From: Nitrosopumilus sp. | Lineage (GTDB): Archaea > Thermoproteota > Nitrososphaeria > Nitrososphaerales > Nitrosopumilaceae | Assembly: GCA_965214775.1 (NCBI GenBank) | Contig: OZ243974.1 | Location: 1,568,001 to 1,632,000, forward strand | Length of the DNA stretch: 64,000 nt | Direction of reading: 5' to 3' | Shown here: positions 58,141-59,684 of the stretch, one piece after another | Position numbering within the stretch: the stretch's first letter is position 1 | Layout of the letters: each line of letters opens with the position of its first letter | The notes under the pieces: generated by a model | The model's database searches: none | The model's input: the letters and a program-made list of their open reading frames with translations, nothing else | What the model was told of the DNA's origin: nothing | Position numbers and translations under genes: made by a program

Positions 58141-58200
58141 CCTGCTAAGAAAAAACAAGCGTCAAATATCAATATTCCTAGATGTGTAGCGTAACCATAT

Positions 58201-59331
58201 GTGTCTCAAAAACAAAATTCAGATGGTGCCAAGATAAATGGCAATGCAAACAAACAGATTACCGCAAAAAAGAGGATACATGTGAAATCAAAGACTGTAC
58301 AAATACAACAACAACAGCAGCAGTATGTCGGCCTGGACGTGCGCAAGAATTTCATCCAGGTCGCGGTGATGGACAAGGGCGGCAAGATGCTGAGTAACAC
58401 AAGAGTCGACAACAAGGACGACGAGATAAGGAAGATATTTGCAGGGATTCCAAAGAATGCAAAGTGCGTCATGGAGTCCTCTTCAGTATGGTACGGGCTG
58501 TTCAGGTTCATTTCAGACAGTCTCAAAAGGGACGTGATCCTCTCAAACCCGTTTGAGACCAAGGTTATTGCCACATCAAAGAAAAAGACAGACAAGGTCG
58601 ACGCGCAGATTCTGGCAGATCTTCTCAGGGGAGGATACATATCTGCATGCTACGTTCCCTCCGGCAAGACTGTACAGAACAGGCAGCTGACCAGGCACCG
58701 CGCAAAGACGATACAGTCAAGGACCGTACTAAAGAACCAGATACACGCAATACTGCTGCAAAACAGGATACAGGTAAATGGGGATCCGTTCTCCAGACCG
58801 TGGATCTCAAGGGTGAGAGATCTGGACAACTTTAGGATAAATGACAAATTAAGCATAATTGACTCCATAAACGACAGGATAGTAGGCATTGACATGCGCA
58901 TCAAGAGCGCGGTTGCCGACAGTCCGGATGCAGTCTTACTGCAGACGATTCCCGGGTTTGGCAGCTACACCGCGCTGACCATGGCATCAGAGATAGACGG
59001 CGTTGACAGGTTTGCCGACTCACACAAGCTGTGCGCGTATGCCGGAATGGTGCCGTCTGTGAGAAACTCGGCAGACACCGTCCACCATGGAAGGATAACA
59101 AAGAGGGGCAGCCCCATGATGAGGTGGCTCCTGGTGGAGTCAGTACACAGCCACGTAAGACATGCGCCGTCAGACTCGCCGATATCTGTCTTTTACAAGA
59201 GGGTTGCAAAGAAGAGGGGAACGTCCAAGGCCGCAGTGGCTGCCGCATCCAAGATGCTGCGCATATCATACTGGATGCTAAAGAAGAGGATGACCTTCAA
59301 GCAGTGCATAGGAGATGCGTGTGTGAAATGA
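58201..59331 (+). CDS. IS110 DEDD recombinase/transposase
   Basis: VGLDV, VMES, KTDKVDA, AYAGMVPSVRNS..GRITKRG. Confidence 0.93.
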   Translation: MSQKQNSDGAKINGNANKQITAKKRIHVKSKTVQIQQQQQQYVGLDVRKNFIQVAVMDKGGKMLSNTRVDNKDDEIRKIFAGIPKNAKCVMESSSVWYGLFRFISDSLKRDVILSNPFETKVIATSKKKTDKVDAQILADLLRGGYISACYVPSGKTVQNRQLTRHRAKTIQSRTVLKNQIHAILLQNRIQVNGDPFSRPWISRVRDLDNFRINDKLSIIDSINDRIVGIDMRIKSAVADSPDAVLLQTIPGFGSYTALTMASEIDGVDRFADSHKLCAYAGMVPSVRNSADTVHHGRITKRGSPMMRWLLVESVHSHVRHAPSDSPISVFYKRVAKKRGTSKAAVAAASKMLRISYWMLKKRMTFKQCIGDACVK

Positions 59332-59339
59332 ATGTTGGT

Positions 59340-59540
59340 ATTACCATTACAGTTAGAACTTTAATCTGCGTTAACCTAGTTGAGGGCGATCCTCGTTTTG
59401 TAACTGCAGAATGGTTCTGATAAATGGATGAAGAATGGTGCTGAGGGAGATCCTCGTATAGATAAGTGTCCGACCTTCATTTTGGAATTGTCAGGAAGAG
59501 ACCCCCAGCCAAAGCCATGCCTCACAACACCGTTGCGCGT
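59340..59540 (+). ncRNA. Putative bridge/seek RNA
   Basis: Two repeated TGAGGG.GATCCTCGT hairpins inside internal loops whose strands match the target and donor junctions; ends approximate. Confidence 0.7.
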
Positions 59541-59570
59541 GGAATCCTTATAAACGTGACACATAGATAA

Positions 59571-59684
59571 TAGGTTAGCCCCTGCCTAGGCAGCAATCAG
59601 GCATGAATCTGCCTGCAGTTGCGATTTTCATGCCTGAAAAGCGGGGGGTGTGACTTTAACTCTAGGCAGGGGCTAACCTATCAC
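59571..59684. mobile_element. MITE body (first 4 nt, GTAA, displaced to 58191-58194 by IS110)
   Basis: Rebuilt TIR GTAATAGGTTAGCCCCTGCCTAG vs GTGATAGGTTAGCCCCTGCCTAG (22/23); homologous to 27223-27338. Confidence 0.82.

Follow-up and report, generated by a model that had tools for sequence, protein, structure and literature searches.

How does an insertion sequence (IS) come to stand exactly three nucleotides inside the terminal repeat of another transposon? The question is raised by a locus in a 64-kb window (G000:C1 1568001-1632000), by which we mean the whole stretch of DNA that was analyzed. This window is part of a single 2.83-Mb contig on which the genome census of copies was based, and positions are those of the window unless preceded by G000. 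A 1376-bp IS110-family element, counted with one TA core, occupies 58194-59569, and it interrupts a ~116-bp miniature inverted-repeat transposable element (MITE) at a point 3 nt into the terminal repeat. We conclude, with a probability of roughly 0.9, that this is an active or recently active IS1111-type IS110 element of a Nitrosopumilaceae-like archaeon, equipped with a bridge (seek) RNA that is aimed at the terminal repeat of the MITE. The initial annotation of this DNA had proposed a 3' bridge RNA programmed against the terminal inverted repeat (TIR) of the MITE, and this proposal is supported by the sites used, by retargeted sister copies, and by co-variation both between guide and flank and within the RNA helices.

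Boundaries and repeated use of transposon ends

All strings quoted in the initial annotation were recovered where it had placed them. GTAA is found at 58191-58194 and CCATATG from 58195, the right boundary reads ATAGATAA at 59563-59570 followed by TAGGTTAGCCCCTGCCTAG at 59571-59589, and the far MITE repeat is CTAGGCAGGGGCTAACCTATCAC at 59662-59684. Ends of the MITE family read GTAAYAGGWTAGCCCCTGCCTAG, and two copies are bordered by clear 8-bp target duplications, so GTAA is the tip of the MITE itself, and removal of the element therefore restores a family-typical MITE end, as had been claimed. Contigs from four public runs depart from the window at 58190-58191 and at 59568-59570. Empty sites read G-TA-ATAGG.. 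or G-TA-CAACATC and filled sites G-TA-[element]-TA-..; a short core is shared by both flanks of the insert and no target duplication is present, which is a feature of the IS110 family. Since the MITE and IS66 targets have only G-TA in common, the core is TA. The initially assigned TAA core was ruled out by deletion derivatives of the element, which read ..ATAGA-TA-CAACATC, and by empty IS66 ends, which read G-TA-CAACATC. Judged from these sequences, TAA only looks duplicated: the TA core happens to be followed by an A both in the element, as its first base, and in the MITE.

The genome contains five full copies with a mutual identity of 98.0-99.9%, two of which differ by one base in 1376, and all five have open frames of 377-378 amino acids (aa). 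Besides these there are one interrupted copy, seven derivatives of 578-579 bp, two other deletion forms, and many solo ends. Left-end flanks ended in GTAA in 24 of 29 cases in the genome; uninterrupted ends read GTAA.. in the MITE and GTAC.. in the IS66 type. All five full copies follow the GTA of a MITE repeat, either immediately or with a tandem 3' piece in between, at TAGGTTA (three copies), CAGGTTA (one), and TAGGATA (one). Thus the sites of the other full copies, which the initial annotation had named as one check, all fall in the same MITE repeat and none at unrelated sequences. Copies were found at both kinds of MITE end, which have in common the repeat alone. At G000 633938-635533 the 8-bp duplication of the MITE, CTTCAAAA, still brackets IS and MITE together, and this insertion therefore took place into a resident MITE.

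The census of the MITE yielded 49 BLAST matches, from which 30 copies were chosen for reading, and clear 8-bp target duplications were seen in two of those read (G000 795494 and 1139186). A pattern search found 54 MITE repeat ends, to which the occupancy count adds a truncated end. Occupancy by the number of mismatches to the guide was 3/8 for none, 2/29 for one, 0/13 for two, and 0/5 for three (Fisher p = 0.018). One MITE (G000:C1 2401545-2404567, locus L142) has a head-to-head IS copy at each of its terminal repeats, one of them with a tandem 3' module. A search for an autonomous parent of the MITE, as inverted TIR pairs 200-6000 bp apart with at most 2 mismatches, gave none. Among the 40 relatives searched, identity in the rtcB neighborhood did not exceed 79%, and no usable orthologous empty site was obtained.

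The seven 578-579-bp derivatives, one of which lies in locus L143, show the same behavior at a different target. They join element positions 1-287 to 1081-1376, are 96.2-100% identical to one another, and keep both ends and the whole two-loop RNA, with the transposase reduced to a 140-aa stump. Their target-loop strand reads TGATGTA (in one, TGATGTT) where full copies have TAACCTA. Full copies carry TTAACCTAG at TAGGTTA-type ends, and derivatives carry TTGATGTAG (one TTGATGTTG) at CAACATCA. Three guide positions are thus changed together with matching changes in the target, while the donor loop and the element ends are unchanged. All 7/7 derivatives are inserted at TA-CAAC[AT]TC; most of these sites are the tip of a ~2.1-kb IS of the IS66 family with a DDE_Tnp_IS66 transposase and 8-bp duplications. 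The uninterrupted IS66-type flank reads G-TA-CAAC[AT]TCAGGTCC (48 ends), and ends with CAACATC were occupied in 5/14 cases versus 1/34 for the other variants (p = 0.006). Cross-targeting was 0/12, with no full copy at IS66 ends and no derivative at MITE ends.

A predicted two-loop guide RNA that changes with its targets

The 236-nt 3' noncoding end of the element is predicted to fold into two stem-loops, in each of which an internal loop separates the outer stem from a GAGGG..CCTC hairpin. For 59352-59480, the fold of lowest energy (-36.5 kcal/mol, z = -2.23) was equaled by 2 of 200 shuffles, and it contains both of the hairpins initially described, with closing stems TCTGCG/TGCAGA and GGATG/TGTCC. 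In an alignment of 20 RNAs, helix positions were paired in 85.1% of cells, versus 35.7-45.2% with slid partners, and changes on both sides occurred at 15 of 30 pairs. The guide TAACCTA complements target positions +2 to +8 right of the core, and ATGGT complements the left tip of the element. The 3' strands of the two loops align base for base (TTTTG-TA-A and ATAGA-TA-A).

The 5' stem strand of the donor loop, GGATGAAG (59426-59433), can pair with TGTCC (59467-59471) or with a distal CTTCAT (59475-59480). By eye, both pairings show compensatory changes in relatives, and this could reflect alternative folds or a pseudoknot; the pairing count took in the proximal partner alone. A scan of 57900-59900 against Rfam 15, with E up to 10, returned three unrelated sub-threshold matches and no curated family for the guide RNA. 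A covariance model built from these RNAs (R1) matched 22 places in the genome and gave matches in 23 of 151 genomes of the class, the genome of the window counted. At G000:C1 1100949-1101175 a divergent remnant without transposase retains a complete two-loop RNA (109.7 bits with model R1), with its own guide TTATCAGTA and the adjoining flank TA-CTGACAGTA.

Related elements from other Nitrosopumilaceae genomes (25) were parsed, and two were dropped, L055 for a truncated open reading frame (ORF) and L069 for a truncated target loop, leaving 23. L039 and L037/L038, with weak or no match between guide and flank, were retained in the tests. Because automatic hairpin finding mis-set the strand of L075, the permutation test scanned a fixed 60-nt target-loop region. 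The best 7-nt match between this region and the cognate right flank was 7/7 in 10 elements and at least 6/7 in 20 (n = 23), and 2.0% of non-cognate pairs reached 7/7. Permutations equal to or above the observed value numbered 0/20000 for the guide versus the right flank, 0/20000 for the target-loop 3' strand versus the left flank, 1/20000 for the donor 5' strand versus the left end, and 0/20000 for the donor 3' strand versus the right end. Co-variation of guide and target across homologues, another check that had been named at the outset, is thus seen in these 23 elements.

Several contrasts among the relatives are independent. L061 has TATCCTA at TAGGATA, and the sister elements L075 and L076, both from a single genome, differ in guide and in target, each guide matching its own target. 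For the donor side, independent contrasts are provided by L064 (ACGGT-ACCGT), L068 (ATGAT-ATCAT), and L039 (ATAGT-ACTAT). The left guide matches the flank over 4-5 nt in many lineages, and over just G or TG in the lineage of the present element. So short a match agrees with a target at the extreme end of a transposon, past which the sequence is variable. The initial claim that the left strand ends in target GTAA therefore stands for the G and the TA, and nothing further is effectively read. In two elements of other genomes, L034 and L040, which belong to a subgroup with the left tip ACTAT, the right dinucleotide is TG and the left TA, and the target-loop strand matches G. In another genome (L038/L073) the same ~29-nt stretch, TTATTCGTTTTGAAATTTCAGGTATAATG, lies on both sides of the element as a long direct repeat of the target region.

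In the mechanism that we propose, the 3' noncoding end would encode a bridge RNA with two internal loops; its production, like circle formation and the chemistry of strand exchange, is predicted. In the target loop, UAACCUA would pair with the top strand of the target at +2 to +8 after the core (TAGGTTA), and UUUUG-UA-A would mimic the top strand left of and across the core, where targets match G-TA alone. In the donor loop, AUGGU would pair with the left tip ACCAT, and AUAGA-UA-A would mimic the right tip and the core. By homology with IS621, ISCro4, and ISEc11, the element would leave as a circle joined ..CACATAGA-TA-ACCATATG.., and the RNA-loaded DEDD/serine recombinase would exchange strands at the TA core of G-TA-A-TAGGTTA.

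Weighing the explanations

Any explanation has to accommodate the observed family membership and boundaries, the repeated use of one kind of site, the co-variation of the guide with the target and of the donor strands with the element ends, and the co-variation of the helices. Some observations weigh against a guide-programmed and still mobile element. Because of the kinship among the elements compared, the permutation counts make the cases look more independent than they are. Three of the 23 relatives score 5/7 at best, and the guide TAAACTA (L072 and the split copy at G000 1533383) fits its flank poorly (4/7). The left guide matches the targets over G and TA alone, and specificity rests mostly on 7-8 nt. 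Helix 3 was just 52% paired, its 5' side being misaligned by MAFFT. In the contigs of the four public runs, neither a circle junction nor a joint skipping the whole element at the window locus was found. Around the window's own MITE the 8 bp outside IS and MITE differ, TGTGTAGC (58183-58190) versus ATTACATC (59685-59692). The far repeat of this MITE reads GTGA instead of GTAA, and together with the mismatched outer 8 bp it points to a MITE of greater age or to IS copies having rearranged with each other later on.

Could the transposase protein itself read the tip of the repeat, the complementary 3' stretches being a coincidence or captured scraps of the MITE? The matches are short (7 nt), and 26.7% of non-cognate pairs reach 6/7 somewhere in the 60-nt region. 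However, guide and target change together within the genome and do so jointly across 23 elements with unrelated targets (0/20000 permutations), the matches lie at the same structural place in loops with co-varying helices, and the family is RNA-guided by experiment, according to the available text of PMC11187229 and PMC11208160. Recognition by protein alone is thus highly improbable. No more credible is a single entry of the IS into one MITE, followed by spread of the composite through the MITE's own transposase or through recombination. Three of the four full copies compared are without an intact 8-bp duplication around IS and MITE, which hints at later rearrangements (the fifth copy, G000 1905452, was left out because its MITE is truncated). 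Against such hitch-hiking, copies occur at the A and B ends of MITEs with different internal sequence, one MITE bears a copy at each end, and in one case the MITE's own duplication encloses the copy, which was thus inserted into a MITE already in place. An insertion so close to the end, 3 nt into the repeat, would moreover sever the MITE tip, and the seven derivatives repeat the pattern at a different transposon end.

A further possibility is that the RNA-guided system is real and is no longer mobile in this genome. Two perfect sites, GTAATAGGTTAG, are still empty, and the public-run contigs gave neither a circle junction nor an empty-site contig. Set against this are the five copies with frames open over 377-378 aa, their identity of 98.0-99.9% with a single base in 1376 separating two of them, and the several flank contexts in which copies appear in public-run contigs. 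We consider a fossil unlikely, and prefer a bridge-RNA-guided element that is or was recently active. One contig in run X1 skips 58377-59238 and looks like a further deletion form.

Family relationships, accessory features, and meaning

The transposase matched Pfam DEDD_Tnp_IS110 (E = 2.1e-22, 80 bits, cut-off 29) and Transposase_20 (E = 2.3e-22, 79.6 bits, cut-off 21.3), and the NCBIfam equivalog NF033542, "IS110 family RNA-guided transposase" (230 bits versus a cut-off of 140). A phmmer search of the PDB revealed ISCro4 (9t56, E = 2.5e-10) and IS621 (8wt6, E = 4.2e-9) as relatives, the two scoring alike against this transposase. In the phmmer alignment to ISCro4, LDV, MES, KTDKVD, and the Ser of RNSA stand opposite IDV, MEA, KTDAVD, and ESG; we take the aligned acidic motifs and the C-terminal Ser to be the catalytic residues. 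The closest homologues, with at most 90% amino-acid identity, are from Nitrosopumilaceae and from metagenome-assembled genomes of Nitrosopumilus, and homologues were present in 40 of 201 same-class genomes searched, the window's genome counted; the host is therefore archaeal. The frame starting at GTG is open into the enzyme in 19/23 elements and adds a basic N-terminal extension of 41 aa with conserved [SL]D[GD] and NANKQI motifs.

Several features are of the IS1111 type. The element has 8-bp subterminal repeats, which are perfect over 8 bp (9/10 with neighbors) and are set back by 4 nt at the left tip and by 2 nt at the right one. Its noncoding region and RNA are downstream, with 236 nt after the stop codon (59332-59567) versus 7 nt before the first in-frame start. 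The top-strand match is 5' of the bottom-strand match, TAACCTA (59372-59378) preceding TTTTGTAA (59396-59403), which is the IS1111 strand order. The serine motif is G-M-V-P-S-V-R-N-S-A, a variant G-M-x-P-x4-S-A and not GL-P----S(t)G. In the available text of PMC11187229 the IS1111 serine motif is given as SG, TG, or occasionally TA, and the seekRNAs of IS1111 elements are located downstream of tnp and carry the match to the top strand on the 5' side of that to the bottom strand. That of PMC11208160 gives subterminal inverted repeats of 7-17 bp and a bridge RNA predicted in the right end for 93% of IS1111 elements. Protein family, the IS1111 features tested, and the Nitrosopumilaceae homologues together bear out the initial assignment to an archaeal IS1111-type element. 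The suggestion of a candidate new programmable recombinase holds in the sense of a new orthologue, and fails in the sense of a new family, as the enzyme already belongs to NF033542.

ISEc11, ISKpn4, ISPa11, and ISPst6, as the available text of PMC11187229 presents them, likewise have a DEDD transposase, subterminal repeats, a long downstream noncoding region, a short RNA with its top-strand match 5' of the bottom-strand match, and a target of their own for each IS. The present element differs from them in its archaeal host, in the 41-aa basic extension from element base 8, and in its serine motif, and it is known here from sequence alone. With IS621 and ISCro4 (accessible parts of PMC11208160 and PMC13626964; 8wt6, 9t56) it has in common a bispecific two-loop RNA with one loop strand per DNA strand and a dinucleotide core common to donor and target, in addition to sequence similarity by phmmer; unlike here, the RNA of IS621 is in the left end and its strand order is reversed. 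The alignment to IS621 and ISCro4 covers only ~140 C-terminal residues and the catalytic N-terminal motifs. The core of IS621 is said to be CT in the 2024 work of Durrant, and that of the present element is TA. IS4321 and IS5075, members of the IS1111 group, were reportedly found by Partridge and Hall in 2003 to insert in terminal repeats of the Tn21 family. Our element resembles these two as an IS1111-type IS landing in the terminal inverted repeat of another transposon, and differs in its targets, which are IS66-type ends (the MITE, the 2.1-kb IS66-family IS, and a third repeat family), in a cut 3 nt from the tip, and in its archaeal host.

Short non-autonomous modules with IS ends, tandem and solo 3' modules, and the idea of modular circles are also found for ISPpu9/MITEPpu9 of Pseudomonas putida in the available text of PMC12288879. 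By the same text, the ISPpu9 module carries a small RNA, Ssr9, that is dispensable for transposition, whereas the 578-bp derivatives keep the two-loop guide RNA with another target strand; also unlike in ISPpu9, solo 3' modules here start at a pseudo-site inside guide DNA. A catalogue of 662 archaeal IS110 recombinases already exists, as far as the accessible part of its preprint tells (bioRxiv 10.1101/2024.06.21.599552). By title and abstract, none of the papers found describes an IS1111-type element from archaea with MITE or IS66 ends as its target; such elements may be listed in Durrant Table S5, in the supplementary figures of Siddiquee, or in the 662-homologue table.

Three tandem junctions, RE-TA/ACTGCAG (RE, right end; the slash marks the breakpoint), and three solo 3' modules, flank-G-TA/ACTGCAG, were found in the genome. 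Their breakpoints are the TA of TTTTG-TA-A in target-loop DNA (59401-59402), and the DNA that encodes the guide is therefore itself a pseudo-target. One more junction, G-TA/TAGATAA, lies in donor-loop DNA (G000:C1 634160), and relatives L064 and L068 have similar tandem right ends. A pattern search for a third family of IS66-like termini, GTAACAGSTCGGGCTCTGGAAGTTCAGGC, returned 133 matches, some of which are not ends. This family bears relic right ends of related IS110-type elements at four places (e.g. G000:C1 69479, 2249608, 2606043, and 2725625), and no intact guide in the genome matches it.

At the right end, an all-A/T hexamer was present at the -20 offset in 24/27 elements, versus at most 4 at offsets outside -21 to -19. 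Across the circle junction, the center of the box (TTATAAA) would be 26 nt before the GTG at 58201. In archaea the TATA box usually precedes the start of transcription by about this distance, and junction promoters are known for bacterial relatives. We infer that the box may be an archaeal junction promoter, which would yield a leaderless transposase mRNA from the circle only. In the integrated copy it faces the downstream ORF of 479 aa (59861-61300), which we take to be RtcB-like, and which borders IS and MITE on one side, with a gene on the minus strand (56971-58158) on the other. Within the left end, ATGGTGC repeats the donor-loop 5' strand in the same sense, and the two segments (58223-58229 and 59435-59441) co-vary over 7-9 nt in 23 elements (0/20000 permutations). 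Pairing with the left tip explains 5 nt only of this mirrored strand, which lies within the coding sequence of the N-terminal extension. Its co-variation points to a possible donor contact or regulatory pairing of a kind not described for bridge recombinases. A tentative and rather doubtful reading of the 578-bp derivatives is that they are guide-carrying satellites, moved in trans by the enzyme of a full element and landing only as their own RNA directs; of the 12 insertions, none is at the target of the other type, even though ends and donor loop are common to both. If so, the RNA would act preferentially on the DNA circle that encodes it; the mirrored donor-loop strand and the circle-only TATA switch with its leaderless mRNA would go with such satellites.

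Table 1. Coordinates of the element, its RNA, neighboring features, and related modules (window positions unless marked G000:C1).
Feature	Position	Strand	Remarks
IS body	58194-59567	+	From ACCATATG.. to ..CACATAGA; bounds from comparison with empty MITE and IS66 ends
G and left TA core copy	58191-58193	+	First three bases of MITE terminal repeat; left half of target
Right TA core copy	59568-59569	+	From derivative and empty-site comparison and contig divergence points
Left subterminal inverted repeat TATGTGTC	58198-58205	+	Partner GACACATA at 59558-59565
Transposase ORF, 376 aa	58201-59331	+	From GTG at element base 8; DEDD residues 43-187, Transposase_20 246-323
ATGGTGC	58223-58229	+	Same-sense copy of donor-loop 5' strand (59435-59441), inside left end
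Target-binding stem-loop	59352-59421	+	Fold, helix co-variation, guide changing with target in derivatives and relatives
Target-loop outer helices	59352-59360/59413-59421 and 59365-59370/59405-59410	+	Second helix TCTGCG/TGCAGA
Target-loop 5' strand, guide TAACCTA	59372-59378	+	Complement of TAGGTTA 59571-59577
Target-loop inner hairpin	59381-59395	+	
Target-loop 3' strand TTTTG-TA-A	59396-59403	+	TTTTGTAA
Donor-binding stem-loop	59426-59471	+	Fold, helix co-variation, permutation tests
Donor-loop stem GGATG/TGTCC	59426-59430/59467-59471	+	
Donor-loop 5' strand ATGGT	59435-59439	+	Complement of left tip ACCAT
Donor-loop inner hairpin	59442-59456	+	
Donor-loop 3' strand ATAGA-TA-A	59458-59465	+	ATAGATAA; equals right tip, core, and first base of left end
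TATA-like box TTATAAA	59548-59554	+	Outward-facing, 20 nt before right tip
Remaining interrupted MITE	59570-59684	+	Right target half A-TAGGTTA 59570-59577; far terminal repeat ends 59684
IrrE-like peptidase/HTH gene	56971-58158	-	Pfam Peptidase_M78 and HTH_3
MITE end without IS			G-TA-ATAGGTTAGCC
MITE target sequence			GTAATAGGTTAGCC
Derivative target sequence			GTACAACATCAGG
578-579-bp derivatives, four of seven	G000:C1 915049-915626, 1166535-1167113, 1210808-1211385, 1787521-1788098		
578-579-bp derivatives, other three of seven	G000:C1 2397533-2398111, 2409556-2410133, 2666236-2666813		
Solo 3' modules	G000:C1 69298, 114824, 2249425		
Tandem 3' junctions	G000:C1 1167111, 2397535, 2402914		

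The element is an unusually legible archaeal member of the known insertion sequences with bridge or seek RNAs, and not a new kind of system. Full copies and derivatives provide a natural, internally controlled demonstration of bridge-RNA programming, in which the same ends and the same donor loop are combined with two target strands and two matching landing sites. With G-TA plus 7-8 nt, the guide code is short and can be read directly, which makes this an easy orthologue to test. The junction TATA box with its leaderless start, self-insertion into guide DNA, and the mirrored donor strand are hypotheses for archaeal regulation that leave the known mechanism unchanged. Because the element lands at the extreme end of an IS66-like MITE repeat, it enters a second mobile element rather than a gene of the host. 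The lineage as a whole appears to be specialized for IS66-type transposon ends, whose GTA tip is invariant, and such a "parasite of parasites" strategy leaves host genes unharmed.

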